Part shown: piece after piece, positions 3,369-63,522 of the stretch
Numbering within the stretch: the first letter of the stretch is position 1
Layout of the letters: every line of letters starts with the position of its first letter
Origin: a virus
Lineage: Duplodnaviria > Caudoviricetes
IMG/VR virus record: IMGVR_UViG_3300006127_000012
Coordinates: 1,225 to 65,224 of that record
Reading direction: 5' to 3' (one strand)
Length of the DNA stretch: 64,000 bases
Translations under genes and position numbers: made by a program
Notes under the pieces: generated by a model
The model's database searches: none
Told to the model about the DNA's origin: nothing
Seen by the model: the letters and a program-made list of their open reading frames with translations, nothing else

Positions 3369-3719
3369 TCACCACAAATAAAGTAGACAACTTTGCAAGA
3401 AATAACCAGCGGCTGTGGCGATGCCGACAACGATCCAGCGCCACTTATCAAGTCCACTGAGCTTGTCGTCAATCTTCTTCAGCATTTCGTTTTGTGAAGT
3501 GATTTGCTTTTCCAAATCAGTCTTCAGAGACTGAATATCTTCTTTCAGCTCTGATCTTAAATCTTCCATACGATCATAGATCTTTCCATTGCTGGAAATA
3601 TTTTCTTCCCTATGTCTGTCCATAGCAGCTGAGAGTTTGTCCAGAGAAGTATTCGCTCTTTCCATATCTTTTTCAAGCAAAGAAATTCTGACGGTGGCTG
3701 ACGATGACTTCTCAACCAT
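3369..3719 (-). CDS. Coiled-coil protein with a C-terminal transmembrane segment
   Basis: Heptad-rich body followed by WRWIVVGIATAAGYFL; TGATG coupling to the upstream gene. Confidence 0.65.
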   Translation of the reverse strand: MVEKSSSATVRISLLEKDMERANTSLDKLSAAMDRHREENISSNGKIYDRMEDLRSELKEDIQSLKTDLEKQITSQNEMLKKIDDKLSGLDKWRWIVVGIATAAGYFLQSCLLYLW

Positions 3720-4543
3720 CACTTTTCTTTCTGCTTATTCAGAAGTTGATTACCGATCTGGAGAAATCTCTTCTTTGAATCCTTAGCAAACCCAGTTGGA
3801 TTTGGGTGAGTCGATGCGTTAGCCTTGACGATTTCTTTTTGTGCAGCAACAGTGTCTTCAGCAAATTCAGTTTCTTCTTTGAAATCTTTTGGATCATACT
3901 TCTTTTTGAAATGTCCAAATCTAGAAAGAATCTCTTTGTTTGCCGCATCAGGTCTAGCCTTGTCGTTATGAATGTCAGCAATGTGACGACCATGTGGAGA
4001 GTCAAGGAAATGTTTCACCATTACGTTTGGTTGTCTGGCGTCTTGGAGATGACCGTGTGCAGTCAGAAGTCTCTTAGCTTGGCTGTGAGCAGCTGCATAC
4101 TTTTTTGAGCGATCGGCGTCATCTGAAGCATTGATTGTTCCGTGGTAACCATAGGTAAGATTCCCGGACTTTACAGCTTCCGAAACATCTTCTTTCGTCA
4201 TGAAATTTTGTGCAGGAGCAGGAGCCATATTGGCTGTATCAGTTACGCGACGAAGAGTCTTTGCTGCATCATCAACCATCTTCTTTCTAGTAATTGGTGT
4301 TGCATTACCGCCACCCGACGTAGCACCTTTGGTATCCGAATAGTGTTGATCGCCACCCATTTCGTCAATCTGAGTTTCTTCAGGCATCACTTCGCGCACG
4401 CGACCCTGTCTTGCACCAAGAGAAGCTGGAGCTTTCTTTTTGATCTGCTTCTCGATTGGGCTTTGACCGCCGGAAGTGGTTGTTGTCGCCATAGCTCCAC
4501 CAGTTGCTACGCCATCTTCGTGGAATTGTCTGAACGTCTTCAT
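3719..4543 (-). CDS. Putative internal head protein with a capsid-targeting-like N-terminus
   Basis: Starts MKTFRQFHE, like T4 internal proteins (MKTYQEFIAE, MKTFKEF); several xxE-delimited segments. Confidence 0.6.
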   Translation of the reverse strand: MKTFRQFHEDGVATGGAMATTTTSGGQSPIEKQIKKKAPASLGARQGRVREVMPEETQIDEMGGDQHYSDTKGATSGGGNATPITRKKMVDDAAKTLRRVTDTANMAPAPAQNFMTKEDVSEAVKSGNLTYGYHGTINASDDADRSKKYAAAHSQAKRLLTAHGHLQDARQPNVMVKHFLDSPHGRHIADIHNDKARPDAANKEILSRFGHFKKKYDPKDFKEETEFAEDTVAAQKEIVKANASTHPNPTGFAKDSKKRFLQIGNQLLNKQKEK

Positions 4544-4932
4544 ATTTTTTGCAACACCTTCTTTATATTATCGTCGCCAACAATGTCGACGCAGTTGATG
4601 GATCTACAATCGTAGTGAATATTCTCGACAACCTTGGGAAGATAGCCCAAGAATTCTAGAAATGGCTTCAAATACACATGATGTTCATGTAAACGGAAGA
4701 ACAACATTCTGGTCGCAGGAACAACACCGAATACATTATACAGCACGATAATATGATTAATTATCAATCGTTCTTTTAATTCGTTAGTTTCTTTATATTT
4801 ATTGAACAATCTTTTGAGGTATTTGAACCTTTTGAGATCGGACATGAATTCTTCAGTGTCAAAACATTCAGGATTATCATAATGTTTTGCCGCATATAAT
4901 ATAAAGGTAGTTTCATCAATTTTTTCAAACAT
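4540..4932 (-). CDS. Conserved T4-like phage hypothetical protein
   Basis: FILYAAKHYDNP...FMSDLKRFKYLKRLF...ERLIINHIIVLYNVFG is a recurring T4-like phage family. Start moved to ATG 4932, directly after the upstream stop. Confidence 0.75.
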   Translation of the reverse strand: MFEKIDETTFILYAAKHYDNPECFDTEEFMSDLKRFKYLKRLFNKYKETNELKERLIINHIIVLYNVFGVVPATRMLFFRLHEHHVYLKPFLEFLGYLPKVVENIHYDCRSINCVDIVGDDNIKKVLQKI

Positions 4933-4933
4933 A

Positions 4934-5401
4934 TCAATTACCGATTTTTCGGTATACTCCGCTATAAGCAACCCATGTATAAACTTCGCCCTTTGATGTC
5001 AAACTGGTGACAGTATCAACAACTCCACCCGTAGCTCGTTCAATAGTCGTTACAGAAGTATTACTGGTGGTAACAATTATGCTATATGTGCCAGGATCAA
5101 CGCATTTAACTGTAAAGACCTTATTGTTTGCGCCAGCAGGAAGAGTAACAAGAATATCACTTCCTGTTGCGCTTGCATCACACAAAAGAATATCATGAGA
5201 AAGATTTGCTGTAAACGTAGCTGTAGAAACATAATTTACAGCTCTGGTGCTGGCAATCTTGTTTGACACATAAGTGTATAATGCATTGGATTGGAGGACG
5301 TATGTATTACCATCCGCCCTCTCAATCGCAAACAGATCAGTATCAGCGACACTAGAAGTGTTTGAAGTCTTATAGATGTCGCTATACTTTTTACCAGCCA
5401 T
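4934..5401 (-). CDS. Putative virion structural protein
   Basis: T/S/V-rich beta-type sequence (ILLCDASA...LVTLPA) in the late block. Confidence 0.55.
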   Translation of the reverse strand: MAGKKYSDIYKTSNTSSVADTDLFAIERADGNTYVLQSNALYTYVSNKIASTRAVNYVSTATFTANLSHDILLCDASATGSDILVTLPAGANNKVFTVKCVDPGTYSIIVTTSNTSVTTIERATGGVVDTVTSLTSKGEVYTWVAYSGVYRKIGN

Positions 5402-5413
5402 TTTATTTACTCA

Positions 5414-6553
5414 TTAAGCCAGAGTCGAACCGCCGCCAACACCAGAGTTGTTGTTGTTTGCCATCTTGTGTACAGCAGCAAGAACTTCATACTGCTTGCG
5501 ATTCGAACGACCACCAGTTGTGGTGACGTTGATTGAACCGCCTGTCGAGGCGACAAGGTTTGCAGATGTGAAAGTTGCACCCGAACCTGTTCCGTTAGCA
5601 ACACCGTTAGCAGCATAAATCTTGACCACAACCTGTGTGTTCGAAGTTGTGTTAGCAAAGATGCCTGTGTTGCTGAAGGTGAAGGTCAGAGAACCACCAG
5701 TTGCGTTTGTCGAAACGTTGGCTGTTGCGTTGATGATCGAGTTCGAAACAACAACATAGTCTGTGTTCGAGTAGCCTGTTGCAGTACCTGTGTAGTTGAT
5801 GTTTGCAGCGTGCTTCTCACGGTTGAAGCCCGTGACAACGTGTGTGTTGGTGAAGAAGCCTGCACCACCATAGTTGATGGTTGCAGAAACAAGGTTACCA
5901 GTTGCGTTTGTTGTCAGAGTTGCTGTGCCGTTAGCCGAACCATTCGAGATGGTAAGAGTATCGCCATTCGAGAAGCCAGCACCTGCTGTGACAGTCAGAC
6001 CAGTTACTGGACCTGTGCCGCGCTTTTCGAGAATCCAACCTGGAGTCAGACCAGGTGAAGTTCCTGTATTGGTGACAATTGCCTGAATCTCGTCTGTCGA
6101 TACGCCGTAGATGCCTTCGATGACATTGTTCTGAAAAGCACCTTCAACAGTGTTGGCATACATTTCAGCACCAGAAACGCGCTGATCAAATGTTACAGCA
6201 AACCCTGTTGTAGTTGTGTTACCGGTTGCTGTACCATATGTCGTGTTAGTGATTGCAAACTGAGCATTCGAAGCACCAACACTAAAAGATCCTGGAAGAA
6301 TCTTGTATGTGCTTTGAATGTAGCCAGTTGCGTTAGTTGTTAGACCAAGAACGCCGTTGGCATAAGTTGTTCCTGGAGTTCCGACAGAAACAACCAGAAT
6401 ATCTGTGTTGTTATAGCCAGCACCACTTGGAATCGTCACCTTGGCTGCTAGGCCAAGATGCTCGTATTGTGTAGCGTAATTCTTTGGACCAGCAAGAACA
6501 CCCTTATACTGTGGTGCGTTATTTGCTTCGTCCTTGTTTCCCCATAAAGCCAT
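5414..6553 (-). CDS. Virion structural protein (fibre/decoration-like)
   Basis: MALWGNKD start; G/T/N-rich repeats (VTAGAGFSNGD, NYGGAGF) typical of T4-like virion appendage proteins. Confidence 0.65.
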   Translation of the reverse strand: MALWGNKDEANNAPQYKGVLAGPKNYATQYEHLGLAAKVTIPSGAGYNNTDILVVSVGTPGTTYANGVLGLTTNATGYIQSTYKILPGSFSVGASNAQFAITNTTYGTATGNTTTTGFAVTFDQRVSGAEMYANTVEGAFQNNVIEGIYGVSTDEIQAIVTNTGTSPGLTPGWILEKRGTGPVTGLTVTAGAGFSNGDTLTISNGSANGTATLTTNATGNLVSATINYGGAGFFTNTHVVTGFNREKHAANINYTGTATGYSNTDYVVVSNSIINATANVSTNATGGSLTFTFSNTGIFANTTSNTQVVVKIYAANGVANGTGSGATFTSANLVASTGGSINVTTTGGRSNRKQYEVLAAVHKMANNNNSGVGGGSTLA

Positions 6554-6556
6554 TTC

Positions 6557-7225
6557 TTATTCCTCCGTCTTATATTTATTGAAGTAGTCGACCACGTTCA
6601 TTTGACCTCTTTCGACATTCATCCAATCATTTCTTTGTTCGGGAGTAACAATACTCAGATTAGAAGATTCGAGGTAGATTTGACGAAGTTCAAATGTTTT
6701 CTTCATAACTTCCATTACCGCAGCCTCAACCGCAGGAACACGCTTTACAGCAGGAGTTGAGTTATAGGCTTCGCCAGTTTTGCCAGCAGAGATGTGAGTC
6801 GAAGTGCCAGTTGCAGGAGAAGGACCAGTGGTTGGCTTGCTTGACTTCTTGTAGACTTCACCAGTCTTTGACTGTGCAATCTGGTCAGCGCCACCCATCG
6901 AAGTGTCGGTCATGCAGGCATCTGTTTCTTCCTTGGTCAACTTATCAGCTGCTTTCTGTATACCTGTCATGCGCTTAACGGCTTTATTGACAAGTTTATG
7001 TCCTTCTGCTTCGCCATCAGCATTGTTTCTAGCTAAAGCCATACCGCCGCCAATTCCTTTACCAAGGACTTGAGTTGATGCCTTCTTAACATATGAACCA
7101 AGTGCTTTTTTACCTGCTGGTGTATCGCCGATTTCATGAAGATCTTCAGCGCTTTCCTTCACGCCACGCAGTCTGGCAACGACTGCTTCAGCAATTCTTT
7201 TACTGCGATTACTATATTCCGACAT
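6557..7225 (-). CDS. Hypothetical late protein (possible head-associated)
   Basis: Late-promoter-like AATAAATA at 7250-7257; LHEIGDTPAGKKALGSYVKKA module after a Glu site. Confidence 0.6.
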   Translation of the reverse strand: MSEYSNRSKRIAEAVVARLRGVKESAEDLHEIGDTPAGKKALGSYVKKASTQVLGKGIGGGMALARNNADGEAEGHKLVNKAVKRMTGIQKAADKLTKEETDACMTDTSMGGADQIAQSKTGEVYKKSSKPTTGPSPATGTSTHISAGKTGEAYNSTPAVKRVPAVEAAVMEVMKKTFELRQIYLESSNLSIVTPEQRNDWMNVERGQMNVVDYFNKYKTEE

Positions 7226-7260
7226 AATTGTCTCCCGAATTTATTTGTCTATTTATTTAT

Positions 7261-8652
7261 TTAATGGCGATACTTGACGACTTCACTACCACCACCCTGC
7301 GATGAAGGCAGAGGCTCAGACACAGCCTTTTTGAACGCTTCATGAGAGGCGCTAGCTTTTTTCTGGAAAGCAGCCTTTTCTTGAGTTGTTTTGCGAGCAG
7401 CCATATGGTCTTCGAATTTACCTACGTGAGAAGGATGCACCTCATGCTTTTCGCCATTATCAAAAGTCACAGGAGCATTGATTGACTTTGCTTTACGTAG
7501 TTGCATGCCAAGAGCTACTGGCTCTTCCTTTGGCTTACCTGCTGCGTCTGCAGCCTGACGACGATGCCAAGCAGCCGAACCTTCCTTTGGTGGACGACCG
7601 CGACCTTCTTCAAGCTCAGCTTCTTCTTTCATCTCTCCTGATAGATAATCAGAAGCAGTCTGAATATAATCCGCAGCTAGCGTAATCTTCAACTGAACCC
7701 ATTCAGGGAGATTTGTTTCTGGCTTGAGCATTGACTTCAGCTCACCAATATGATGCATCATCTGAGCGAGCTGATTCAGAGCCATGTCGCCTTCATAGTC
7801 ATACTCATGCGAGTCTTTTGATTCGCCAATTTTCTTGGCAATCTCATGAGCTTTATTGATTGTTGATTTCTTGAGAGGAGGAGTGTCGCCAGTTGACTTT
7901 TCAGCAGCAGCCATTCCTACAGCATATGGATTCTTGACGCCTTCAGCAAGTTCTACTTCTTCATGCATTGCATGAACGCTATATTTTCCGCCGACACGAT
8001 CAACCATATTGCCACGTGCAGCGTGAGCATCAGCCTTTGACTTATCGCTGAAGGTCTTTTGAGAATCGCTCCAGTTGCCATCCTTACCCTTATACTTCAC
8101 AACCCACATTTTCTCGGCTGTGCCTTCAGCAAGCTGAGTTTCTTCATTCATTTGTTTTTGCGCTTGAGTTTGGTCTTGGTTTTGTTTTTGTGCCTGTTGT
8201 GCAGTAGCAGATGCACCAGAAGTTGAAGTTTGTTTTGTCTTAGTGGTAGCAGCGGAACTTGAACTTGCCTTTCCTCCTGTTGCAGTAGTAGTTGGGCTAG
8301 CTGAAACATCACCAGCAGTTTGGTTAATGTATTTGTCAAACAATTCAACTCGCAGCTTGGCGAAGCTAATACGCTTACCAGTTTCTTCCTTGATTGGCTT
8401 CAGGTCATCATGGTGGCAAACCAGATTTGTTCCATCACGATCCATCGACACAACATACATATTGTTCTTGTCGTCGTAATGGTCAATATTGCCCTTGCCC
8501 TCGTATCCGTCTTTCTTGACTTCTACACGTGCGCCTCTCTTATACATACCATCAGTATGGAGAGCGCCATCAACTTCAGATCTTTGGTCCTGGTGATCTG
8601 CAGCAGTGCTTTCGCTGAGCAGGTTCATAATTGCTTTGCCAAGTTTAGTCAT
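7261..8652 (-). CDS. Modular Glu-delimited late protein (putative internal head polyprotein)
   Basis: Segments separated by EET/EEVELAE/EEAELEE; includes HEYDYEGDMA...LPEWVQLKIT and KNPYAVGMAAA modules and a T/S/Q-rich linker. Confidence 0.6.
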   Translation of the reverse strand: MTKLGKAIMNLLSESTAADHQDQRSEVDGALHTDGMYKRGARVEVKKDGYEGKGNIDHYDDKNNMYVVSMDRDGTNLVCHHDDLKPIKEETGKRISFAKLRVELFDKYINQTAGDVSASPTTTATGGKASSSSAATTKTKQTSTSGASATAQQAQKQNQDQTQAQKQMNEETQLAEGTAEKMWVVKYKGKDGNWSDSQKTFSDKSKADAHAARGNMVDRVGGKYSVHAMHEEVELAEGVKNPYAVGMAAAEKSTGDTPPLKKSTINKAHEIAKKIGESKDSHEYDYEGDMALNQLAQMMHHIGELKSMLKPETNLPEWVQLKITLAADYIQTASDYLSGEMKEEAELEEGRGRPPKEGSAAWHRRQAADAAGKPKEEPVALGMQLRKAKSINAPVTFDNGEKHEVHPSHVGKFEDHMAARKTTQEKAAFQKKASASHEAFKKAVSEPLPSSQGGGSEVVKYRH

Positions 8653-8663
8653 TAGGTTCTCCG

Positions 8664-9098
8664 TTATTTACCTGTAGCTCTCAACATCCAGCCATGTTTA
8701 GCATGAATATCTAGACGATCTTGTAGAAAATTCTCGATGCCACGATTATCAGCAGCGCCAGCTTCTTTAATTGCATCTTTGATTGTAGCCATGACTTTTT
8801 CGTTATCTGACAATAACGCTTTGATCATAGCTTTTGCATCAGGAATAGTTTCAATTGTATTTATTGAAGCTAGATCGCCGAATCTATTGTAGCTACCAGG
8901 AGCATATTCATCAAGAGTGCGGATATGTTCAGCAATGGCATCCACAGCTTCCCAAACTTCGTTATAAATCGTATCAAACAGAGAATGATACTGAGGGAAG
9001 TTTTCTCCCTCAACATTCCAGTGGAAGTAGTGCGTCTTCAAATAGAAGGTGAAGGAATCTGCCAGCACATTCTTCAGTTTATCGCCTAGAACACTCAT
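8664..9098 (-). CDS. dps: Dps/ferritin-like DNA protection protein
   Basis: KTHYFHWNVEG, HSLFDTIYNE, DAIAEHIRTL ferroxidase motifs; 144 aa. Confidence 0.93.
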   Translation of the reverse strand: MSVLGDKLKNVLADSFTFYLKTHYFHWNVEGENFPQYHSLFDTIYNEVWEAVDAIAEHIRTLDEYAPGSYNRFGDLASINTIETIPDAKAMIKALLSDNEKVMATIKDAIKEAGAADNRGIENFLQDRLDIHAKHGWMLRATGK

Positions 9099-11374
9099 AG
9101 TGTATCTCCCTTATCTGTTTCTTCACAGTTCCATCTACGTAGGGACATCGCCTTACGTGTTGGGCGACCCTTTTCATCCTTCATTGGTCCCCTCATGCCA
9201 CCCATACGGGCACAAAATGACTTACGGCGTTTCGCAGCTTTTCCATTAGGATCTAATTTACTTGGTGGCGTGGTTACTGCGGTCTTAATTCCGAAATGCT
9301 TAGCACCTTTACGTGTTAGACCTGCACCAGATTCAGTTGAACGCTTGTAGCCATGGCTGTCTTCACCACGTTCCATAATAGCCTTGACTTGTTCAATGAG
9401 AGAAGATTCGTCAATAGGATTGCCTCTTGTGTCATATTTCTTGACCTTGCCACCCTTAGCGAAGAACTCAGCTTCAGCATCTTTCATAGAAGTCTTAGAT
9501 CCAGGAAGGATCCCTGTTCTTTGATAACGCTGTTTAGCATAACGCTGAGTGTTTACAGCAATTGATTTGCTGCGATAATCATTATAGACTTTAGCGCCAG
9601 CACCCTTGGTTTCTCCAAGATCAACTTGTTCATTTTTTGGCTTTTTGCCAGCTTTCTTCATGGCAATCGCAATTGCTGCTTGTTGGGCAGGATTGGCAGC
9701 TTCATTCTGAGATGCTTTAAACGCAGCGTTAGTTGGAGCACCTTTGCTGCCTGGCTTGCGCATATGTTCGCCTGAGCCATGCTTAATGCGTTCTTGTTTT
9801 GCATGGATATTATCCCAGAGTCCACGCTTTTCTCCAAGCTCAATTTCTTCTTTAGGAACGCAGTTAGGGACTTCTTTCTTGCCCTTCTTCTTCATGCCTT
9901 CCATTTCATAACCCTTCCAGCAAGGATCAGAATCTTCCGAGATACCAGCATGTTTATGAGCTGATGCCTTAAAGTCCATACCAAAGTACTTAACGCGACC
10001 ATGCTTGTTAGATGCTTTCCAACCAAGTTGCTTATCGCTTCCCTTTTCAGAAAATGGCTTAACGTATGGAGTATTCTTTGACTCTTCAATCTCTGCATTT
10101 TCCTTAGCGAGATGCTTGAAATACTGAACCTGACGTTCGCGCTTTTCAGCACCAGCCTTTGTTGGATACTTGCCGAGATTGCGACCAGTCGACTTTGACT
10201 TCAGCTCAAAGCCACCCTTGACCTTAACGATGTGTTCCTTCATAGCTTTCTTTTTCTTGCAAGGCTTGCATTCACAGCCATCTTCACCCATGCAATTATT
10301 TGAGTTGCCTGATTCGCCAGAAACAGCAGCATCAGCTGCAAACATGTATTCCTTGAACGTTTTCTTTTTAGGAACTGTAGGAATTGGCGAGCTGACTGGA
10401 GCTGATGCATCAGGGCGACCATTAGCCAGACCGACTGTAGAACCAACATCATCTTCAGCAATGGTCGCCAGATATCTCTTCAGAGAACGGCGACGCATAA
10501 GGTTGGTTTTGTCTTTGTCAGTTGTTGCCTTGATGTTTCCATCTAGACCAACGTTACCCTTACCATCAGGAGCAGGAACATTAACCAAAGGAGACTTCTT
10601 GCCGAGATAATCTCTAGCGTCCTTTGTTGGAATAGATTGGACTTGTTCGGTAACTTTCTGTGGACCTGCCATACCGGAATTAATATCGTTCATAAGCTCT
10701 CTTACGTGTTCATCGGGGACATGTTTTGGTGCACCATTTGCTCTCATGGTATTATAATCACCAGCCTGCGCCGCTGCGCGACTCTTGGTGGCAGACCACC
10801 CAGAAAGACCAGTAGAATGTTCATCGCGATCTTGGCCAGCGCGAACAAAAGAAATCTTTTTGAAATTGAAAAATCCATGAGGACCAGCTTTACCATTATA
10901 GGTATTCAACAAACGCTCATATTCTGGAATGCGGTCTGATCCAGCTACCACCACAAGATGATCATGACCCTGATTATGTAAATCTGAAGCCTGACTGAGA
11001 AGATTAGGGCGATCAGGATGAGCAGTTGTGATGTTAACACCAGGGAAGAATCTTCTAGCGTGCTTTAACTTTTGCTCTGGAGTAAGCGGATTCTTTTTCT
11101 TATCCTGTGTTCTAGTAAGAACGACATGATATGGTGCATTATGAAGTTTTGATTGTTGGAGAACTGTGTCGATAATTTCTCTATGAGCAGGAGTTGGTGG
11201 ATTCATACGAGCAGGAGCAAAAACAACTGGATTGCTGGTTGATACTGATGGATCAACCGCTTCCATCTGGCTGCGATTGACGATAACTTCATTTGGAATT
11301 TTGCCAGTAAGAGTTTTATCTCTTTTTGGTTCTAATCCCAATTTTCCTCGGATTAAATCGACAAATTTACCCAT
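9095..11374 (-). CDS. Cytidylyltransferase-like (HxGH superfamily) domain fused to a long multi-module C-terminus
   Basis: ARMNPPTPAH (variant of GRxNPPTxGH), KNPL, VAGSDR, SATKSRAAA motifs, followed by about 500 aa of short basic modules. Confidence 0.8.
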   Translation of the reverse strand: MGKFVDLIRGKLGLEPKRDKTLTGKIPNEVIVNRSQMEAVDPSVSTSNPVVFAPARMNPPTPAHREIIDTVLQQSKLHNAPYHVVLTRTQDKKKNPLTPEQKLKHARRFFPGVNITTAHPDRPNLLSQASDLHNQGHDHLVVVAGSDRIPEYERLLNTYNGKAGPHGFFNFKKISFVRAGQDRDEHSTGLSGWSATKSRAAAQAGDYNTMRANGAPKHVPDEHVRELMNDINSGMAGPQKVTEQVQSIPTKDARDYLGKKSPLVNVPAPDGKGNVGLDGNIKATTDKDKTNLMRRRSLKRYLATIAEDDVGSTVGLANGRPDASAPVSSPIPTVPKKKTFKEYMFAADAAVSGESGNSNNCMGEDGCECKPCKKKKAMKEHIVKVKGGFELKSKSTGRNLGKYPTKAGAEKRERQVQYFKHLAKENAEIEESKNTPYVKPFSEKGSDKQLGWKASNKHGRVKYFGMDFKASAHKHAGISEDSDPCWKGYEMEGMKKKGKKEVPNCVPKEEIELGEKRGLWDNIHAKQERIKHGSGEHMRKPGSKGAPTNAAFKASQNEAANPAQQAAIAIAMKKAGKKPKNEQVDLGETKGAGAKVYNDYRSKSIAVNTQRYAKQRYQRTGILPGSKTSMKDAEAEFFAKGGKVKKYDTRGNPIDESSLIEQVKAIMERGEDSHGYKRSTESGAGLTRKGAKHFGIKTAVTTPPSKLDPNGKAAKRRKSFCARMGGMRGPMKDEKGRPTRKAMSLRRWNCEETDKGDTL

Positions 11375-11393
11375 TGTGCACCCTCTTTTTTTC

Positions 11394-11401
11394 TATTTAT
11401 G
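11394..11401 (-). promoter_or_regulatory. Late promoter CATAAATA
   Basis: TAAATA core 20 nt upstream of the start at 11374. Confidence 0.55.
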
Positions 11402-12626
11402 GTTTTTCAGAGGTAAACCCACCACCACGATTCTTAGCAAAATTAGCAGCACTAAATTCAGCGCGATTGACTGCCTTATCAATAGTATTTGTATTAGGGT
11501 TGACCGCGACCATCCCTTCAGGACCAGTAGGATTTTCCCCAATACTAGTGTCATATTTCTTGTTTTGAGCAGCTGCATCAACAAGAACATTTTTTGCATT
11601 CTGTAAATTTCTATGGACTTCTAGCAGTTTGCTAATATGCTCTTTATTTTTAGCAATATCGTTCATTCTTGTATTCAACAGGCTAGACTTACGTTCAATA
11701 GCTGCTGGAGATTTTACCTTTGAGATTTCATTCTGGCCACGTTGCTGAACAAAATTGGTAAATCCTTCGTGGCTCGGAGCGCCAGCCTGTCTAACTTCAT
11801 GATTGATATATGCCATCATATCAGGAAGATGACGAGAAGAAACTTCATGAGCTTCCGGAGACAGACCAGCATATGCCTTATTTGCAGCATCAAGGTGTTT
11901 TTGGAATTCAGCCTTTTGCTCGTCAGTATAATTTTCTGGATTTGGTTTTGTTTCCGTAGAAATAATATGGACATCCGGATGTTGAGCAAACGGTTTCATA
12001 TCAGGCATAAACCTTGGTCGCATTCCACCAAGAGTTCTGCTGCCATCATCTTCATAGCTAGTATGAACAGCCACGCCAAGTTTAGCTGCTGCAGCTTTTT
12101 TGCCTTCTGCAGAATTCTTTTTTAGTCTGTATGTGAGAGTGTTAGGCGTAAAGGAAAGATTCTTACCTTCGTCATTGATATCATTGTTTGTATACATGAC
12201 ATCGCCCTGATACACCCTACCTTTAGGAGAGACTTTTGGGAGATGTTCAAGAGCAGCTTTCAGTTTTTCTACCAGACCAGGAGCGTGACCGTGGTTACGC
12301 TCAATATCTTCCGGAGTGTAATTAATTTTTGGTGTCTTATTGCCCCAAGATTTTGTGGCAACAAAGAATTTACCATTTTCAGGATTTGTTCCCCAAACTA
12401 ACGAAGGAGCACCATCAAACTTTTCGCCAATCTTAACATCTGAAGGCTTACCTTGAAGAGAATCATGCATACCCAACAAAGTGTTTCTTGCATGATTATA
12501 GCCTTCGTCTCCTGCTTGAAGCAGACGATCTTCAATATGGTCAAGGTGGCCAAGTTTGCTTGGAGCAGCAACTGTTGTTGGAATTTCTTTGGCAGCTTCA
12601 GCCATGTATAGCTTTAAAGATTTCAT
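11397..12626 (-). CDS. DUF6267-like protein with a ligase-type KxDG motif
   Basis: HLDHIED, EKFDGAPSLVWG, FFVATKS, TPKINYT, YQGDVMY, FTPNTLTY, GPEGMV; capsid-targeting-like start MKSLKLYMAE. Confidence 0.7.
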   Translation of the reverse strand: MKSLKLYMAEAAKEIPTTVAAPSKLGHLDHIEDRLLQAGDEGYNHARNTLLGMHDSLQGKPSDVKIGEKFDGAPSLVWGTNPENGKFFVATKSWGNKTPKINYTPEDIERNHGHAPGLVEKLKAALEHLPKVSPKGRVYQGDVMYTNNDINDEGKNLSFTPNTLTYRLKKNSAEGKKAAAAKLGVAVHTSYEDDGSRTLGGMRPRFMPDMKPFAQHPDVHIISTETKPNPENYTDEQKAEFQKHLDAANKAYAGLSPEAHEVSSRHLPDMMAYINHEVRQAGAPSHEGFTNFVQQRGQNEISKVKSPAAIERKSSLLNTRMNDIAKNKEHISKLLEVHRNLQNAKNVLVDAAAQNKKYDTSIGENPTGPEGMVAVNPNTNTIDKAVNRAEFSAANFAKNRGGGFTSEKP

Positions 12627-13666
12627 CTTTGGTCCATTCTCAATCTGCCTTCTCTGGGAGTAGCTGGCTTACCTTTTGAGTTGATTCTAGGAATAGCGCC
12701 AATTGACAACCTAGGAAGTGGTCCTTGATATACGTTTTTCTCCATACCAGGATCTTCATAATGATAAACTTTTGCTGGTGTTTTTGGAGTCGCAGTTGTT
12801 ACAAAAAAATGAGCCGCATGACCGGAATTGACACCAAATTTGCCAATACCAGTTGCGGCTTCTTTACGAAGATGATAATTCAGAGTTGGATATTTCTGAT
12901 GAATCGCTTTGATTTGTTGGTTGCCTTGGTTAACCAAAGCTGTTTGCGCTTCAGCAGATTGCCCTTTCATTTTCTGTTGAATTTGAGCAATATTGCTTGC
13001 ATGAGACATGATTTCATCATGAATTTTATCTTTTTCTACTCCGGAAAGATGATCAAACTCGGGAGAATTGAGCATCTGATCAGCAGCATGATGGTGTAAT
13101 GCTAGATTCTCATTAGCTTGAGCAGAAGCCAGCTGAGAACCTCCTGGCTTCTTTAGAGAGATATTAATTCCGGTTCCTTCTCCAGGATGAGCAGGATCTT
13201 CAATAGCAATATCTGATTTTGAAGTTCTTGTTGCTGCGCCGTCTGCTCCGTAGCGTGACCATGTTGGAGAAACATCTCCTCTATCCGCGCCCATAACTCT
13301 AGCCATATGGCGATTGCCGATAGAGTCTCGGATTATATCATTACCATTATGAGCCATACCATGAATGGTATGTAATGCATTTTCCAACTCATTATAATAG
13401 CTATCTTGGTCTCCTACTTGGCCACCGCGATACATATGAGGCTGGGTGTTTCTATAATGTAGAGCATGAGATGGATCATTTCTTGCTTGATCTAGAAGAG
13501 AACCAAGAGCGCCAGCATTAGAATTGTGGACATTTTCGTCTCCACCAGTATGCTGGACAAGACCGTGATTAACTACATGATTCCATGCATGAGCAAGAAC
13601 TTCTTCCTCATTGGCAGTACCACCTTTTTCTTGGCGTGCTTCTCGCAATTCTGTAAAATCGAGCAT
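12623..13666 (-). CDS. Putative PD-(D/E)xK nuclease-like protein
   Basis: TSKSDI...ISLKK..GSQL resembles a restriction-endonuclease-like active site; start MLDFTELRE. Confidence 0.45.
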   Translation of the reverse strand: MLDFTELREARQEKGGTANEEEVLAHAWNHVVNHGLVQHTGGDENVHNSNAGALGSLLDQARNDPSHALHYRNTQPHMYRGGQVGDQDSYYNELENALHTIHGMAHNGNDIIRDSIGNRHMARVMGADRGDVSPTWSRYGADGAATRTSKSDIAIEDPAHPGEGTGINISLKKPGGSQLASAQANENLALHHHAADQMLNSPEFDHLSGVEKDKIHDEIMSHASNIAQIQQKMKGQSAEAQTALVNQGNQQIKAIHQKYPTLNYHLRKEAATGIGKFGVNSGHAAHFFVTTATPKTPAKVYHYEDPGMEKNVYQGPLPRLSIGAIPRINSKGKPATPREGRLRMDQR

Positions 13667-13694: not shown

Positions 13695-13702
13695 TATTTA
13701 TA
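13695..13702 (-). promoter_or_regulatory. Late promoter TATAAATA heading the 13.7 to 3.4 kb block
   Basis: Exact consensus 29 nt upstream of the ATG at 13666. Confidence 0.8.
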
Positions 13703-14918: not shown

Positions 14919-15077
14919 TTAGGAATTCTTCTTTTCTTTGAGCGGAGTAAACTTTCTCTTCAGATGTATCACCCAACCTTCTTGTGGATCATAAAAGGTG
15001 ACATTGTTCTTATACCTTTCATCACTTGCTACGCGAGTGAATTCGTCATATTCCTTGAATGTCATAATATTCTTCAT
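14919..15077 (-). CDS. Small hypothetical protein (52 aa)
   Basis: Manual translation MKNIMTFKEYDEFTRVASDERYKNNVTFYDPQEGWVIHLKRKFTPLKEKKNS; ATGA coupling to the upstream ORF. Confidence 0.6.
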   Translation of the reverse strand: MKNIMTFKEYDEFTRVASDERYKNNVTFYDPQEGWVIHLKRKFTPLKEKKNS

Positions 15078-15250
15078 ACCCACCAATTCTCCGGTTCAAA
15101 ATAAATGTCAAATTCAGAATTAATTTTGTTTTTGGCGTAACGGTATGCAGCCAATGCAACAATTCCCGTTACGCCAAAAACCGCAAAGAAAGCTGCCTTC
15201 TTAGCGAGGTTCTTGACGTTAACTTCTTTAAGGTTTGAAGGCAGTTTCAT
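15074..15250 (-). CDS. Small single-pass membrane protein (58 aa)
   Basis: Manual translation MKLPSNLKEVNVKNLAKKAAFFAVFGVTGIVALAAYRYAKNKINSEFDIYFEPENWWV. Confidence 0.6.
   Translation of the reverse strand: MKLPSNLKEVNVKNLAKKAAFFAVFGVTGIVALAAYRYAKNKINSEFDIYFEPENWWV
15128..15181. repeat. Perfect 16-bp inverted repeat with a 22-nt spacer
   Basis: gtttttggcgtaacgg (15128-15143) and ccgttacgccaaaaac (15166-15181). Confidence 0.9.
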
Positions 15251-15260
15251 ATATTACCTA

Positions 15261-15902
15261 TCAGCGGAACTTGATGCCAGTTTGTTCTTCAATCACACTA
15301 ATGTCGATTGGCTTGGCTTCCTTGTTTTCCTTAACGTTGCTGGCTTCATATGCCTTGATCGAGCCATCCTTTAGATAGACGATCTTGTAAAGAATGACAG
15401 GAACAGGAACCTTGTGGGCGCCAATAGTTGGAACAAACGAAGAGTTATAGACAGCGCCAGTCACAACGTTCTTGAAAGGCATAGCACGAACGGCAGCTTC
15501 AAGATTCTTCCATGCGATGCGATTGACGTTAGGATACTGAGGAGTCATGTTGGTCATGAAAAACGTATCTGACATTTCTGTCTCATTAGCCGAGTCAGCA
15601 GCAGGAGTCATATGACCACGGTCAAACCCAGTATTGGTGTAGTCAGCTGGAGTAGGTGAGTTGGCTACAGCTGGGTCTGGCTTGAACGAGTCAACACGAG
15701 CAACCTTACCGTCCTGAACGAGTTCGGTCGAGAAGATATTGGCTTCATGCTTGGTATCGTAAACCGATGCGTAGAACGAGTGGCAGATAACCTGTGTTCC
15801 AGGAACAACGATTTCTTTACCGTTAGGAAAGAACTGGTCGCATGGAGATGCGAACGCAGCAGTAGGTAGCAGCATTGCTGCTAGAAACGTTACGGTCTTC
15901 AT
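15261..15902 (-). CDS. Secreted DNA/RNA non-specific endonuclease (NucA/EndA type)
   Basis: DRGHMTPAAD active-site motif, NMTPQ..NR..W..LE, signal peptide MKTVTFLAAMLLPTAAFA. Confidence 0.9.
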   Translation of the reverse strand: MKTVTFLAAMLLPTAAFASPCDQFFPNGKEIVVPGTQVICHSFYASVYDTKHEANIFSTELVQDGKVARVDSFKPDPAVANSPTPADYTNTGFDRGHMTPAADSANETEMSDTFFMTNMTPQYPNVNRIAWKNLEAAVRAMPFKNVVTGAVYNSSFVPTIGAHKVPVPVILYKIVYLKDGSIKAYEASNVKENKEAKPIDISVIEEQTGIKFR

Positions 15903-15940
15903 AGTATTTTTCCTTTTTTGTGGGTACAATTATTTAGGAA

Positions 15941-24673: not shown

Positions 24674-24864
24674 GCGAACGGATCCGCTTCCGTGTGCTTA
24701 AATTCACGATTTGTGTAATCATTAATGTAATCTTGAATTTCATTGATTCTATCTTCAACAATCCAACCGTGCGCCTGATCGTCATAGTCATGCCGAAGAA
24801 ACACAGTCTTAAGACCGTTTAAAGACTTCTGAATCTTGTCGATAGTTTCATCAGCCGATAGCAT
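24670..24864 (-). CDS. Hypothetical protein (last gene of the modification operon)
   Basis: 64-aa ORF overlapping the kinase stop. Confidence 0.65.
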   Translation of the reverse strand: MLSADETIDKIQKSLNGLKTVFLRHDYDDQAHGWIVEDRINEIQDYINDYTNREFKHTEADPFA

Positions 24865-25396
24865 TGCTGATCGCCTCCACCAATACAGCCTGTTCTTCTA
24901 GATTGTTGTTGTCGAATTCTTGAATATCAAACATCAGAATGAAGTTGCTACGGATATTGTTAATCTTGCTCTCGCGACCGCGAAGCCAAGTCTCATCCTG
25001 ATTGCTACCACGTTCCTTGTATCTTTCAGTGCGAACATCCTTATTTGTATTCAGATAGAACATGCTTGTTTCATAATTCTCAAAACAGTGCTCAAGGAAA
25101 GAAGAAGTCGAAAGGCGATCGCCCTCAAAAATGACAACAGAGTCAGGAGCAGCCTTATTCAAGTTTTCGAGAAACTTAATTGCCTGAGGCTGAACAGCCA
25201 TGGACATTCGATCAGTGCCACCAAAGACCTGACCGTCTTCATACTTACCGAGGATGAAGATATTTCCCTTCTTGTGAAAGGGAACTAGCTTAAAACTTTC
25301 GTTGATCGTCTTATCGAAGCCATACTTTTCCATCAGCTTCTTCATCAACGTGGTTTTGCCACTACCTGGCTCACCAAAAATCGCAATCACCTGCAT
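24851..25396 (-). CDS. P-loop nucleotide kinase (DNA-modification associated)
   Basis: GEPGSGKTT Walker A, FGGTDRMS, VIFEGDRL, RY..RGS.Q.E.WL.GRE. Confidence 0.75.
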   Translation of the reverse strand: MQVIAIFGEPGSGKTTLMKKLMEKYGFDKTINESFKLVPFHKKGNIFILGKYEDGQVFGGTDRMSMAVQPQAIKFLENLNKAAPDSVVIFEGDRLSTSSFLEHCFENYETSMFYLNTNKDVRTERYKERGSNQDETWLRGRESKINNIRSNFILMFDIQEFDNNNLEEQAVLVEAISNAIG

Positions 25397-42179: not shown

Positions 42180-43526
42180 TTAGAGGATGTTGTTTACAAG
42201 CACACGACGGTAGTAAACGTTCACGTTCTGAACGAGAGTACCATCCGAACCAGTTGCACCACGCGAGAATGGGTTCGCGACAACGCCGTAACGTGTCTTG
42301 AAGCCAATCTTAGGCTGGAAGGTGTCCTGACCGACAGCACGAACCATCTGTAGTGGAACGTATGGGCAGTAGAACAGACCAGCGTCAAATGCGCTCGAAC
42401 CCTTGTAACCGATGGTCATATAGTTACCAGCAGCATATGGATCGATATAAACACGCATACGACCGTTAAGAACACCAGCGAAGGTATTGCCTGTGTCGTC
42501 AACTTCAAGGTTGTTCGAGTTTAGAGCAGGAGCATAGTCAAGAACACCAGCCATCTGAAGGGCAGAAGCAACGTCTGACGAGCAGATGATGATATTACCC
42601 TTACCACGACGAGTAGCCTTGGCGATTTCGTTAGCTTCACGCTCAACTTGGAACATCAGACCCTTGAACTTTTCAACTGACCAACGACCGTTTGAGTCGA
42701 TGTCGAGGTCGAAAGTACCAGCAGTTGTGGTAGCAGCAGCACCAGCTGTAGCAGTCAGGTTGATAGTACGAACGATTTCGCGGTTGATTTCAGCCAGAAT
42801 TTCAGCCGACAGAATTGTCGACAGTTCTGTTTCAGCGTCAAGACCGTGAATTGCCTTGAGATCCTGAGCCAGTTCGATTGTGTATTCAGCCTTCAGGGCA
42901 CGTGTCTTTGCAGTCACGGTTACCTTGTCGATGCTGAAAGCCATCTGGTTGAAGTCAACGTTCGAAGTCGAACCCAGAGCTTCACCCTGTGCAGTGTTTG
43001 CACCAGAAGCGAAGTTATATGTGTTCGAGTCGCCTGAAACGACAGTCGCGGTGTTAACACCGTAGATGCCACCCCAGTTACCACCAGTATTACCGATAGC
43101 AGCGTTACCAACAGCAGCCTTACCATAGGTCGACTGACCAGTGTTAGCTTCGTAGTAGAATGCGTTAGCACCCGACTGCGAGTCATACTGTGGACGCAGA
43201 GCGAAGATAAGACCAGTTGGACCAGTCATTGGCTGAACACCGCAGATGTCGTAAGCGATCAGGTTTGGCATCGCACGACGAACCAGCGAGATAAGCACTG
43301 GGTCGTAGTTCTGAACACCACCAGCAAGCGAAGTTGCTAGAGAGCCTGAAGTTTCCGACAGAAGTGAAGTTTGGCCACCCTGTCCAGCTTCTTCCATAAG
43401 AGCACGCTCTGTATTTTCAAGAAGCTGAGCGATTGTTGCACGCTTGTGGCTATCTTTGATCTTTGGAAGCTCAGGGTGTTCTAGAATTGCACCCCACTTC
43501 GTTTGGACTTCTTCATTGAGATTCAT
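42180..43526 (-). CDS. gp23: Major capsid protein
   Basis: YDPVLISLVRRAMPNLIAYDICGVQPMTGPTGLIFA, KTRALKAEYT.ELAQDLKA.HGLDAE, FYCPYVPLQM. Confidence 0.99.
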   Translation of the reverse strand: MNLNEEVQTKWGAILEHPELPKIKDSHKRATIAQLLENTERALMEEAGQGGQTSLLSETSGSLATSLAGGVQNYDPVLISLVRRAMPNLIAYDICGVQPMTGPTGLIFALRPQYDSQSGANAFYYEANTGQSTYGKAAVGNAAIGNTGGNWGGIYGVNTATVVSGDSNTYNFASGANTAQGEALGSTSNVDFNQMAFSIDKVTVTAKTRALKAEYTIELAQDLKAIHGLDAETELSTILSAEILAEINREIVRTINLTATAGAAATTTAGTFDLDIDSNGRWSVEKFKGLMFQVEREANEIAKATRRGKGNIIICSSDVASALQMAGVLDYAPALNSNNLEVDDTGNTFAGVLNGRMRVYIDPYAAGNYMTIGYKGSSAFDAGLFYCPYVPLQMVRAVGQDTFQPKIGFKTRYGVVANPFSRGATGSDGTLVQNVNVYYRRVLVNNIL

Positions 43527-43564
43527 TTGTTTAACTCCCTATTTCCTTATGAGTTGTATTTTAT

Positions 43565-44659
43565 TTATTTTTTTACAGTTCTTGAAATTACGTCAGCATA
43601 TGCTTTCATATTCGAAGGAACAGAAGAAGTTGTTTCTTCTTCAATATCATAACCTTCAGTCAGAGGCTCAGCAGCAGTATTGCTTGGAGTCTTTTCTGAG
43701 AAGTAGGTTTCCTTGATCGTTTCGACCTTTGAGGCAAAGTCGTCAACATTCGTGTAACTGATGTTTTCAGCTAGAGAAAGGAACTTCTCTTTCTGAGAAA
43801 CGGTCATGCCTTCAGCCATTTCGGCGACAAGGTCGGTAATTCGAGTTTCTTCCAGTTCTTCCTCAAGAGCGAGATTCTTCTCAACTTCTTCAGTAACGCG
43901 AGCCTTCAGAGCCTCGATTTCTTCTGCCATCGAAGACAGAACGTCTTGACGATCATCAGAAACTGTGATATAATTATTTTCGAACATTTCCTTCAGACCA
44001 AGCAGCATTTCTTCTGCCATTTCAGCCTTCAGACCATTGTCTACAGCGATCTGGTTTTGTTCGACCCATTCCTTAGCGACATATGACATATACTTGTCAA
44101 CTGATTCAACCATTTCATTGTGAACCAGATCAATAGCTTCATCAAGAGCAGCAGTGAATTGCTCTTCAAGACGTGTTTCGATAATAGCAACTCTTGAGCT
44201 CACAGCAGCTTCATAAACGGTTGAAGCCTTTGCCATCAGTTCTTCAGAAAGAACGTCATCGCCGAAGATTTCAGAAACGTCTTCCTTAGCAGCAATTGCG
44301 TTAACATGTTGCTGAGCTGGCTTTGTGATTTGAAACTTAGGAGCATGCGCATCTGTTGGTGACAGGTGAACAGTTGCAGGTGTTTCGCCAGCCGACTTAT
44401 CTGCTGAACGTGAATTATCTGCGCTAGTGTGAGCGTGATAAATGTCGAACAGTTCGTCCTTACCACGAGCTTGAAGATCGTGCATAAGAGCAGCGAGAAC
44501 TTCAGCCTTAGTGGTCATTGAATATGATGTTTCGCCAGCTGACTTGTCAGCAGTGCGCGAAGCACTACCATGGATCGCTGGCTCAGGGAGAATCCCATTA
44601 CCTGATGAAGATGTGAACTCGTCGAGTTGACCGTCTTCAACAATTTCTTTTCTTGCCAT
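43565..44659 (-). CDS. gp22: Prohead core scaffold protein
   Basis: KASTVYEAAV, VDKYMSYVAKEW..QN.IAV..GLK; position upstream of gp23. Confidence 0.93.
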   Translation of the reverse strand: MARKEIVEDGQLDEFTSSSGNGILPEPAIHGSASRTADKSAGETSYSMTTKAEVLAALMHDLQARGKDELFDIYHAHTSADNSRSADKSAGETPATVHLSPTDAHAPKFQITKPAQQHVNAIAAKEDVSEIFGDDVLSEELMAKASTVYEAAVSSRVAIIETRLEEQFTAALDEAIDLVHNEMVESVDKYMSYVAKEWVEQNQIAVDNGLKAEMAEEMLLGLKEMFENNYITVSDDRQDVLSSMAEEIEALKARVTEEVEKNLALEEELEETRITDLVAEMAEGMTVSQKEKFLSLAENISYTNVDDFASKVETIKETYFSEKTPSNTAAEPLTEGYDIEEETTSSVPSNMKAYADVISRTVKK

Positions 44660-44703: not shown

Positions 44704-45375
44704 TTATTTTCTAGACAATTTATTTAGAAATTGCTCGAAAAATGCGATACTATTTTCGTTAATGGCAGAAACAGTCATTTTGTTCATTTGCTTTTTCGCA
44801 GTTTCAACAAACTGAGCTGCTCTCCAGGATCCTTCTGCTACATCATAGACCCATTCAGTGTTTTCTAAAATACCACGAACGAATGCATTTGGGGCTGACG
44901 GATCAGCGACAATATCAGCAGCAGTTGCTAGCATGAAGTCGTCTTGGACTTCCATGATTCCGTCTTTGTTCATCTTGATAGAACCCATGCCTCTCGAAGA
45001 AACTCCAAGATTTGCACCGTCTTCAATAAGACCCTTTACAACTTCACCCATAGGAGTAGAAGTAATTTTTGCACGACCAATGAAATTCGAACCATCGCGA
45101 GTTAGCGATTCGATCATGTGCGAAACACGATCAAGATTAATCGTTGGTCCTTGTGGGTGATTTAACTCACCATAAGCACGCTTTTGGTTAATATAATTTT
45201 CAGTATAACGTCGAACTTCCTTATCAAGAGTTTCAGCACGATACATTCTGCCGTTGCGATTCTTGATATCACCCATAAGGAAAATGCCTTCGATGAAAAC
45301 GTTCTTCTTGCCGTCTTCACGAGCTTCCTTGATGATTCTCACATCTTCAATTGTTTCTGTAATTAATAGAGCCAT
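44704..45375 (-). CDS. gp21: Prohead protease
   Basis: IEGIF...KNRNGR.Y, AYGELNHP, GVSSRG.GS, ADIVADPSAP.A. Start moved to ATG 45375. Confidence 0.97.
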   Translation of the reverse strand: MALLITETIEDVRIIKEAREDGKKNVFIEGIFLMGDIKNRNGRMYRAETLDKEVRRYTENYINQKRAYGELNHPQGPTINLDRVSHMIESLTRDGSNFIGRAKITSTPMGEVVKGLIEDGANLGVSSRGMGSIKMNKDGIMEVQDDFMLATAADIVADPSAPNAFVRGILENTEWVYDVAEGSWRAAQFVETAKKQMNKMTVSAINENSIAFFEQFLNKLSRK

Positions 45376-63159: not shown

Positions 63160-63522
63160 CTAGAATAAATCTGGATTAGATTTAGCAAACTTTCTCATAA
63201 TAACACCAGCAACTGCATTAGCCTCATTCTCATGATCTGATCCATCTGATCCATCAGTATGTCCTTTAGCATGATGAACTAATTCATGAGCTAAAGTTCT
63301 CATTACATCCATAGGATGTCTGCCATCAGTATTTAGTTTGATTGAATGTCCATCATAACAGCCAAATGATTTAAGTTCTTTAGATTCTTTACCAGAAATA
63401 GTATGAACTGGTGGAAGTTGTTTGAGTTTTAGATATTCCTGAGCAAATGGTAGAAATCTATTAAGGACTTCATCCACTTGTTTATGATTAATCTGCTCAA
63501 CAAATTCTCTGAATGTTTGCAT
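63160..63522 (-). CDS. Zincin-like metallopeptidase (HExxH) with a capsid-targeting-like N-terminus
   Basis: RTLAHELVHH...ENEANAVAG; starts MQTFREFVE. Confidence 0.8.
   Translation of the reverse strand: MQTFREFVEQINHKQVDEVLNRFLPFAQEYLKLKQLPPVHTISGKESKELKSFGCYDGHSIKLNTDGRHPMDVMRTLAHELVHHAKGHTDGSDGSDHENEANAVAGVIMRKFAKSNPDLF

Follow-up and report, generated by a model that had tools for sequence, protein, structure and literature searches.

The 64 kb of DNA analysed here (positions 1,225 to 65,224 of the IMG/VR virus record IMGVR_UViG_3300006127_000012, a 65.2-kb contig; hereafter the window) belong to a distant T4-like myovirus. Its major capsid protein (MCP) is 68% identical to the counterpart in Stenotrophomonas phage DLP6 and about 60% identical to those of the Caulobacter phage Cr30, the Pelagibacter phage Mosig, the Melnitz phages of Methylophilales, and cyanomyoviruses. 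The window contains a block of minus-strand genes that includes three whose products, of 347, 409 (DUF6267), and 274 amino acids (aa), begin with a short peptide resembling the capsid-targeting sequence (CTS) of the T4 internal proteins; a fourth gene of this kind, encoding 120 aa, lies outside the block (Table 1). In T-even phages the CTS is a portable address, and the internal proteins are a diverse anti-defence set (PMC3012670, PMC9026906). We argue below that the tagged proteins of the window are probably loaded into the head along with the DNA and carried into the host cell.

Table 1. Features of the block, of the head module, and of the distant tagged gene, in window coordinates (a slash marks the end of a tag or a cleavage site)
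Feature	Position	Strand	Match or remark
Tagged 274-aa protein	3719..4543	-	MKTFRQFHE/DG...; tag, Gly/Ala-rich linker, basic body
DUF7207 protein, 143 aa	4540..4971	-	PF23837 2.5e-37; conserved synteny marker
Fibre-like virion protein, 379 aa	5414..6553	-	T/N/G-rich; MALWGN... start identical to S-SCSM1 ORF95
222-aa protein	6557..7225	-	start MSEYSNRSKRIAE/A: T4-like IAE/A site, no full tag
AATAAATA motif	6580	-	27 nt upstream of the 379-aa gene
Two AATAAATA motifs	7257/7261	-	32-36 nt upstream of the 222-aa gene
463-aa low-complexity modular protein	7261..8652	-	start MTKLGKAIMNLLSE/S repeats the MCP site LLSE
Dps/ferritin-like protein, 144 aa, untagged	8664..9098	-	PF00210 1.9e-27; phrog_3636
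759-aa modular protein	9095..11374	-	phrog_3041 1.6e-42; PF19846 1.3e-14
Late-promoter-like CATAAATA	11394..11401	-	27 nt upstream of the 759-aa gene
Tagged DUF6267 protein, 409 aa	11397..12626	-	MKSLKLYMAE/A...; PF19782 4.7e-86
Tagged 347-aa protein, probable MspI/HinP1I-like PD-(D/E)xK-type nuclease	12623..13666	-	MLDFTELRE/A...
T4-type late promoter motif TATAAATA	13695..13702	-	36 nt upstream of the 347-aa gene
Scaffold and MCP region	42180..44659	-	
Major capsid protein (MCP)	42180-43526	-	phrog_138
Scaffold	43565-44659	-	phrog_237 2.1e-70
gp21-type prohead protease	44704..45375	-	phrog_207 1.4e-78
Tagged 120-aa protein, putative minimal M78/IrrE-like metallopeptidase-like domain	63160..63522	-	MQTFREFVE/Q...; HELVH

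The preliminary description of this DNA had reported the four N-termini MKTFRQFHE, MKSLKLYMAE, MLDFTELRE, and MQTFREFVE, and all four are read as such at the starts of minus-strand open reading frames (ORFs). We described the tag with the regular expression ^M..[FYWL]..[FYWLIM]([LIVMF])?.E. Across the six frames of the window it matches 4 of 147 first methionines and 0 of 404 internal ones (Fisher p=0.005), and all four matches are the starts of real genes. The codons differ among these genes, so the likeness is at the protein level. The same expression was applied to 80 IMG/VR loci around DUF6267 (872 kb), where it matches 130 of 1760 first methionines and 19 of 5077 internal ones (p=1.6e-57); this amounts to an enrichment of about 20-fold at ORF starts, on unrelated cargo. 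As a control, the strict form of the expression was run on the 169 kb of T4, in which it matches solely ipII, ipIII, and gp61.1.

The resemblance to T4 extends to individual residues. In the T4 sequence (NC_000866), ipII and ipIII begin with MKTYQEFIAE and ipI with MKTFKEF, as the preliminary description had stated. Residues 4 and 7 of the CTS serve targeting, as mapped in T4 IPIII, and residues 8 and 10 serve processing (PMC9026906). All four window tags fit the targeting determinants, with F4/F7 in the 274-aa and 120-aa proteins, L4/Y7 in the DUF6267 protein, and F4/L7 in the 347-aa protein. The DUF6267 tag has M8, not Ile or Leu, together with E10. Positions left free by the regular expression are T4-like as well (K2, S/T3, K/R5, Q/E6). 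The third T4 gene recovered by the control, gp61.1 (L110:967-1131; NC_000866 18966-19130), encodes a 54-aa hypothetical protein and lies directly upstream of gene 61, the primase gene. The protein opens with MKTFKEFIKE, a perfect CTS, after which come ED, a linker rich in G and S, GGNP, and a patch of lysines. By its sequence, gp61.1 may be a fourth CTS-bearing T4 head protein.

The head module of the window has the T4 order of portal, gp21-type protease, scaffold, and MCP. Aligned with T4 gp21, the prohead protease retains the His of GELNHP and the Ser of GVSSRG, and also the N-terminal L-I-x-E. The predicted propeptide cleavage site of the MCP, LLSE58/T, aligns with the maturation site of T4 gp23, FLTE65/A. 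Since both the gp21-type protease and the MCP site are kept, the phage has what is needed to recognise a T4-type propeptide and to remove it, and this protease is presumably the enzyme that cuts off the tag. Like T4, the phage encodes a gp22-type scaffolding core along with the gp21-type protease.

The preliminary description held that lack of the tag in homologues would speak against its proposal; for each of the four proteins, however, homologues do keep it. Among the 3357 homologues of DUF6267, the best 120 almost all begin with M-x-x-F-x-x-[FY]-[LI]-x-E, which is separated by a linker of variable length from a conserved KLxHLEHxED. The DUF6267 protein of DLP6, ORF066, opens with MMKFTQFLAE. 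The 347-aa protein has seven homologues, all of them tagged (MKTFIQFLSE/ER, MLNFLNFLTE/ER, or longer forms ending in L-x-E/ER), and these bear the canonical L8/E10. Full-length homologues of the 274-aa protein begin with MKSFKQFAE/DG or MKSFKEYQE/DA. The domain of the 120-aa protein has 1763 relatives and recurs within multidomain proteins (e.g., with CTP_transf_like and AAA_33); its N-terminal copies are often tagged (22 among the 150 best), for example as MKTFKQYLNE or MKSFKTFLNE. In the 80 related loci the tag also stands on cytidylyltransferase-like domains (11), on P-loop kinases (AAA_33, zeta, and adenylate-kinase-like), on HAD/NT5C phosphatases, Pol-beta-type nucleotidyltransferases, and RimK-like ATP-grasp enzymes, and on PAP2.

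The DUF6267 protein had been called ligase-like, and the fold and a KxDG motif support this. Its AlphaFold2 model has a predicted local distance difference test score (pLDDT) of 89.6, with residues 1-12 forming a detached, low-confidence helix and linker. The best match in a VIA comparison is the nick-sealing Naegleria RNA ligase (5cot_A, Z 9.5 over 184 aa at 3.6 A), with T4 Rnl2 (1s68_A) at Z 8.2 (181/233 aa) and REL1, Trl1, and DNA ligases at Z 6-7.4; the top Foldseek matches are ligases too, and weak (E 0.016). Invariant in 26 sequences are K69-x-D71-G72, E370-G371-x-V373, and K384, which by their pattern would correspond to ligase motifs I (KxDG), IV (EGxV), and V (K). A DUF6267 profile searched against the PDB sequences returned no ligase and only spurious coiled-coil matches, and hhalign against T4 Rnl2 gave a probability of 0.1, i.e., no similarity. 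Because no sequence-profile link to known ligases was found, we describe DUF6267 as ligase-like by its modelled fold only, that is, as a putative RNA-ligase-like covalent nucleotidyltransferase and not as a member of a named ligase family.

At least 14 related loci encode DUF6267 joined under one tag to a cytidylyltransferase/NMNAT-like domain, the same domain that forms the N-terminus of the next gene in the window. In these proteins DUF6267 occupies residues 1-400 and the cytidylyltransferase-like domain residues 407-613 or thereabouts, a Rosetta-stone link between adjacent window genes. The fusions (IMG/VR loci L005, L006, L008, L010-L015, L017, L020, L021, L024, and L025) are single tagged proteins of 640-750 aa. 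These single-tag fusions indicate that DUF6267 and the NMNAT-like transferase most probably work together.

The remaining tagged proteins are less clearly assigned. In the model of the 347-aa protein (pLDDT 78.8), residues 1-14 are disordered and detached. It had been described as nuclease-like, and the support is moderate: VIA matches it to MspI (Z 6.1, 201/262 aa) and HinP1I (Z 5.5, 181/241 aa), both within the noise range of the tool, and an independent Atlas structure search found the Endonuc-MspI and R-HINP1I clusters (template modelling scores 0.50 and 0.56), while Foldseek with the same model returned nothing significant. The catalytic motif of MspI/HinP1I-type enzymes is (S/T)D-x17/18-(N/Q)xK. 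Invariant in eight sequences of the 347-aa family is S151-D152...N168-x-S170-x-K172 (D-x17-SxK), with Ser in place of Asn/Gln. From the model and this motif, the protein is somewhat more probably a nuclease than anything else. A metagenome scan with this family recovered just two short contigs. For the 120-aa protein, the description as a metallopeptidase is weakly founded, the HELVH motif being present and the match to Peptidase_M78 (PF06114) falling below threshold (E 0.0038, 17.5 bits; cut-off 22). The N-terminal module of the 274-aa protein is like T4 gp61.1 (MKTFKEFIKE/DM...): the sequence patterns are similar, and both genes are found upstream of a primase gene.

The preliminary description had extended the tag to the 'polyproteins' of the block (759, 463, and 222 aa). 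This part does not hold: they lack a canonical tag and have only degenerate or relic forms of it. The Dps-like and fibre-like proteins of the block are likewise free of a canonical tag. The 759-aa protein starts with a degenerate MGKFVDLIRG; an NMNAT/cytidylyltransferase-like domain occupies about residues 36-246 near its N-terminus, and a series of short basic modules leads from there to DUF6321 at the C-terminus. Its transferase domain matches the 'cytidyltransferase' family phrog_3041 and, by tblastn, cyanophage 'cytitidyltransferase' genes, and it shows T-P-A-H and S-A-T-K-S-R (cf. the (H/T)xxH and SxTxxR motifs); Pfam PF01467 has no match to it at E 0.01, and 11 tagged relatives do match. 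An internal KKTFKEYMFA at residue 337 scores 9.1 with a position-specific scoring matrix of the tag, and this relic suggests that the protein arose by fusion of once-separate tagged genes. The same matrix also scores an evident non-tag, HKSFCQIIIL in 35733-37445, so such internal matches are suggestive only. The three modules of the 759-aa protein match S-CREM2 ORF154, ORF160, and ORF137, all of which were detected in virions. The short modules of the 463-aa protein recur in other proteins; it has no family match in Pfam, PHROGs, or NCBIfam, and from its LLSE start we infer that it may be a protease substrate. As a marker of the 463-aa and 222-aa proteins we tried [LI]-x-E at residues 7-16, and this fails, being present in 10 of 74 genes.

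Published virion proteomes of cultured cyanophages link the tag to the particle. A block of the same gene order is found in cyanophages: in S-SCSM1, every one of ORFs 89-93 bears the annotation 'virion protein', and they are followed by ORF95, which shares the MALWGN start and is annotated 'tail fiber protein (virion protein)', by ORF96 (DUF7207), by a holin-like gene, and by the primase gene, an order that is the same in DLP6. DUF7207 homologues at the matching position are S-SCSM1 ORF96, S-CREM2 ORF159, and DLP6 ORF077. The 'NMNAT' of S-SCSM1, ORF91, was found in CsCl-purified virions and left unexplained by the authors (PMC9602691); it begins with MKSFLQFLKE. In the virion proteome of S-CREM2 (Table 3 of PMC10665884), five of the six proteins with a strict tag are present: ORF6 (SAM hydrolase, MKDFDSFLEE), ORF13 (of unknown function, MKDLHSFLTE), ORF14 (APH-like kinase with a GTG start, VKRFDAFLTE), ORF136 (likewise unknown, MQTFSMFFSE), and ORF154 (cytidylyltransferase, MKNFSSFLTE). 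The sixth, the 55-aa ORF175 (MNWLKNYLIE), is not among the virion proteins, and the proportion among all others is 47 of 213 (p=0.003). When both phages are pooled, 6 of 8 tagged proteins and 91 of 493 others are in the virion (p=0.0009). Neither proteome paper mentions the CTS, and in the literature covered by our full-text search we found no open-access paper tying the CTS to cyanophages or to DUF6267.

Variant tags occur in the same particles. Among S-CREM2 ORFs 12-15 (L089:7704-13331), the virion protein ORF12 has an internal ...RFASFMAE/A after 14 residues, and the virion protein ORF15 has a tag one residue shorter, MNFSEFNE. In the window, an internal methionine of a small ORF (14919-15086, minus strand) gives MTFKEYDEF..., which is tag-like, one residue short, and resembles the start of ORF15. 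Start-codon annotation or tag variants may thus hide more cargo.

The reading that we favour, and hold with good confidence, is that the tagged proteins are packaged and ejected by the T4 route. The tag, a detached N-terminal peptide of 9-10 residues that has aromatics at residues 4 and 7 and closes with hydrophobic-x-Glu, would dock the protein onto the scaffolding core during prohead assembly; the gp21-type protease would then cleave after the Glu; and the mature protein would remain in the head with the DNA and exit with it at infection. Docking, cleavage, packaging, and ejection in this phage, as well as the role of the cargo, including the anti-defence role suggested in the preliminary description, are inferred.

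Several observations weigh against this reading. The regular expression was drawn up after the motif had been seen. In three of the four window tags (F-H-E, L-R-E, F-V-E) the final Glu is residue 9, not 10, and the Glu-9 form of the expression is unspecific, matching TerS and CP12; in S-CREM2 its loose form matches TerS, CP12, and ORF92, none of which is in virions, and because of this what validates the Glu-9 form is only the wider resemblance to T4 ipI and the conservation within families. The well-tagged S-SCSM1 ORF30 (MKTFKQFMSE) and S-CREM2 ORF175 went undetected in virions, and the proteome authors caution that abundant proteins may carry over. Unlike the window protein, the cyanophage copies of DUF6267 are short, untagged, and outside virions, which makes its packaging lineage-specific. 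The phage of the window, finally, is known from its genes alone, and the virion data come from the cultured relatives S-CREM2 and S-SCSM1.

Alternatively, the tagged proteins could be assembly-only core components like T4 gp22, gp67, and gp68, which would take part in building or sizing the head and then, broken down by the protease, leave it ahead of DNA packaging; nothing would be injected. T4 core proteins are indeed cut to peptides that mostly exit the head (PMC9026906), x-x-Glu sites are numerous in the low-complexity, modular proteins of 463, 222, and 759 aa, and the block includes clearly structural genes such as the fibre-like one at 5414-6553. However, the tagged cargo is well folded in the models, with invariant active-site-like residues, and the tagged enzymes of S-CREM2 and S-SCSM1 were seen, with multiple peptides, in mature CsCl-purified virions. 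We regard this alternative as improbable. Even less probable, in our view, is that the tag has nothing to do with the capsid and instead affects translation initiation or mRNA stability, or docks the protein to some other partner, e.g., a chaperone, a membrane, or a modifying enzyme, with the virion detections reflecting contamination by abundant late proteins. Contamination was raised by the proteome authors themselves, but the residues are kept although codons differ, the conserved positions are exactly those mapped for targeting and processing in T4, the tag shares its hydrophobic-x-Glu end with the MCP propeptide site, the phages in which it is found all carry a gp21-type protease, and its association with virion proteins is significant in the pooled data. 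That four N-termini happen to fit a loose pattern by chance is barely conceivable: the loose expression would by composition match about 0.6 of the 147 first methionines (our estimate) and its Glu-9 form matches unrelated proteins such as TerS, yet chance is refuted by the lack of any match at the 404 internal methionines, by conservation across thousands of homologues with variable linkers, and by the 20-fold ORF-start enrichment in the related DNA.

The packaging and ejection that we favour can be compared with several known systems. As with the T4 internal proteins, there is an N-terminal tag of about ten residues, M-K-T-[FY]-x-x-F-[IL]-x-E, in late genes of a phage whose T4-type head module includes both the gp21 protease and the gp22 scaffold, and the tag is the sole element common to otherwise unrelated cargo; one of those T4 proteins, IPI*, is an injected anti-restriction protein. 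The T4 cargo is small and basic (8-20 kDa), whereas the window encodes tagged enzymes of 40-45 kDa (an RNA-ligase fold and a probable nuclease) and a small HExxH domain, and relatives carry the tag on kinases, HAD phosphatases, nucleotidyltransferases, and a SAM hydrolase; in addition, three window tags have the Glu-9 end, and the lineage has so far been seen as sequence only. The T4 ADP-ribosyltransferase Alt is likewise a head-packaged enzyme that is trimmed by gp21, ejected, and active on host proteins before phage expression, but it has a 7-residue propeptide and C-terminal processing, no canonical CTS, and a different chemistry. A parallel in cargo is given by the virion NMNAT/cytidylyltransferase, kinase, and SAM hydrolase of S-SCSM1 and S-CREM2, which were detected by mass spectrometry, carry the same tag, include a transferase homologous to the window domain, and lie in a syntenic block that ends at DUF7207 and the primase gene; the two papers draw no link to the CTS and leave contamination possible (PMC9602691, PMC10665884).

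Two further systems can be compared. The inner-body and ejection proteins of the giant phages phiKZ and SPN3US include many head-internal proteins, enzymes among them, which a T4-related, gp21-like prohead protease trims behind a Glu before their ejection; they differ in cleavage logo and head architecture, and are not known to share a 10-residue N-terminal address. Polyvalent proteins (Iyer et al. 2017, PMC5512222) chain together effector domains (metallopeptidase, nucleases, nucleotide enzymes) and are predicted to accompany the DNA, and the 120-aa HExxH and transferase domains of the window occur fused in such multidomain proteins (e.g., P0148). In contrast to the window, where the cargo is encoded mostly by separate tagged genes, polyvalent proteins are usually linked to MuF, to the portal, or to a type IV secretion system, and lack a CTS-type tag.

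The layout of the block agrees with late expression. The preliminary description had placed TATAAATA at its head, and the motif is found there, upstream of the first block gene. The window has 22 NATAAATA sites, 14 of which lie 12-48 nt 5' of starts on the same strand, and they precede the MCP, scaffold, and sheath genes; by its placement, NATAAATA behaves as a late promoter of the phage. Within the block, motif evidence puts TATAAATA or NATAAATA 27-36 nt upstream of four genes (positions 13702, 11401, 7257/7261, and 6580). The best explanation of the block, from 13702 to 3719, is that this distant T4-like myovirus keeps here a 'virion accessory' module and transcribes it late. In its middle lies the untagged Dps-like gene, an odd place for a DNA-protection protein; NCBIfam Dps models match it below their cut-off, and NCBIfam gave no match for the tagged or modular proteins. 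Pfam and PHROGs returned only sub-threshold or function-less matches for the 274-, 463-, 222-, 379-, and 155-aa proteins.

Other parts of the window and its contig have further features. No nucleotide relative of the window was found in the phage collection searched, and a scan of genome contigs gave nothing closer than relatives at about 30% identity; sibling contigs, 60-70% identical, carry P0002, P0003, and P0129. A minus-strand gene for a DNA/RNA non-specific endonuclease (15261-15929, PF01223 1.9e-33) has a signal-peptide-like N-terminus, ...MKTVTFLAAMLLPTAAFASPC, and the enzyme is presumably exported. Over the whole contig, GGCC occurs 27 times (105 expected), GTAC 64 times (144), and AAGCTT twice (21), a depletion that looks like restriction-site avoidance. 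A minus-strand operon (24851-30580) encodes, by Pfam, Tet_JBP, a GATase, a TAGT glycosyltransferase, an amidoligase, a low-molecular-weight phosphatase, ADDT, and Ploopntkinase3. The Tet_JBP, TAGT, ADDT, and kinase genes indicate that the phage DNA is probably hypermodified at thymine, which would let a packaged nuclease spare it.

The assigned cargo appears to consist of nucleic-acid and nucleotide enzymes and would therefore act at the very start of infection, where its role would be repair, counter-defence, or attack on host DNA. A ligase-like enzyme with an NMNAT-like partner, joined in relatives by kinases and phosphatases, recalls the healing and sealing by T4 Pnk and Rnl and the restoration of NAD+. 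A more specific proposal, to which we give only tentative credence, is that throughout those branches of the T4 superfamily that live in water and soil the CTS marks a pre-packaged kit of nucleic-acid enzymes. At its core would stand DUF6267, coupled or fused to the NMNAT-like transferase, with tagged P-loop (Pnk-like) kinases and HAD phosphatases added in relatives and, in this phage, a nuclease that spares the hypermodified phage DNA. Entering the cell together with the genome, these enzymes would mend cleaved tRNA or RNA, restore NAD+, or cut host DNA ahead of all phage gene expression. On this proposal, the tag alone could serve to read out the injected proteome of uncultured phages.

What is new here is that the CTS tag is seen in a distant T4 lineage and on cargo the size of enzymes, that both DUF6267 and the cyanophage 'cytitidyltransferase' keep it throughout their families, and that it is statistically associated with the virion proteomes that have been published. 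Should the tag work as in T4, a motif of ten residues would predict capsid-internal proteins of uncultured T4-like phages, including abundant marine lineages of cyanophages, pelagiphages, and methylophages. It would also explain the 'non-structural' enzymes (NMNAT-like, kinase, SAM hydrolase) that recur in cyanophage particle proteomes, and would give the large uncharacterised families DUF6267 and cyanophage 'cytitidyltransferase' their first functional context, namely delivery at infection. Packaged RNA-repair-like and nuclease activities would then be candidate counter-defence tools that act before transcription.

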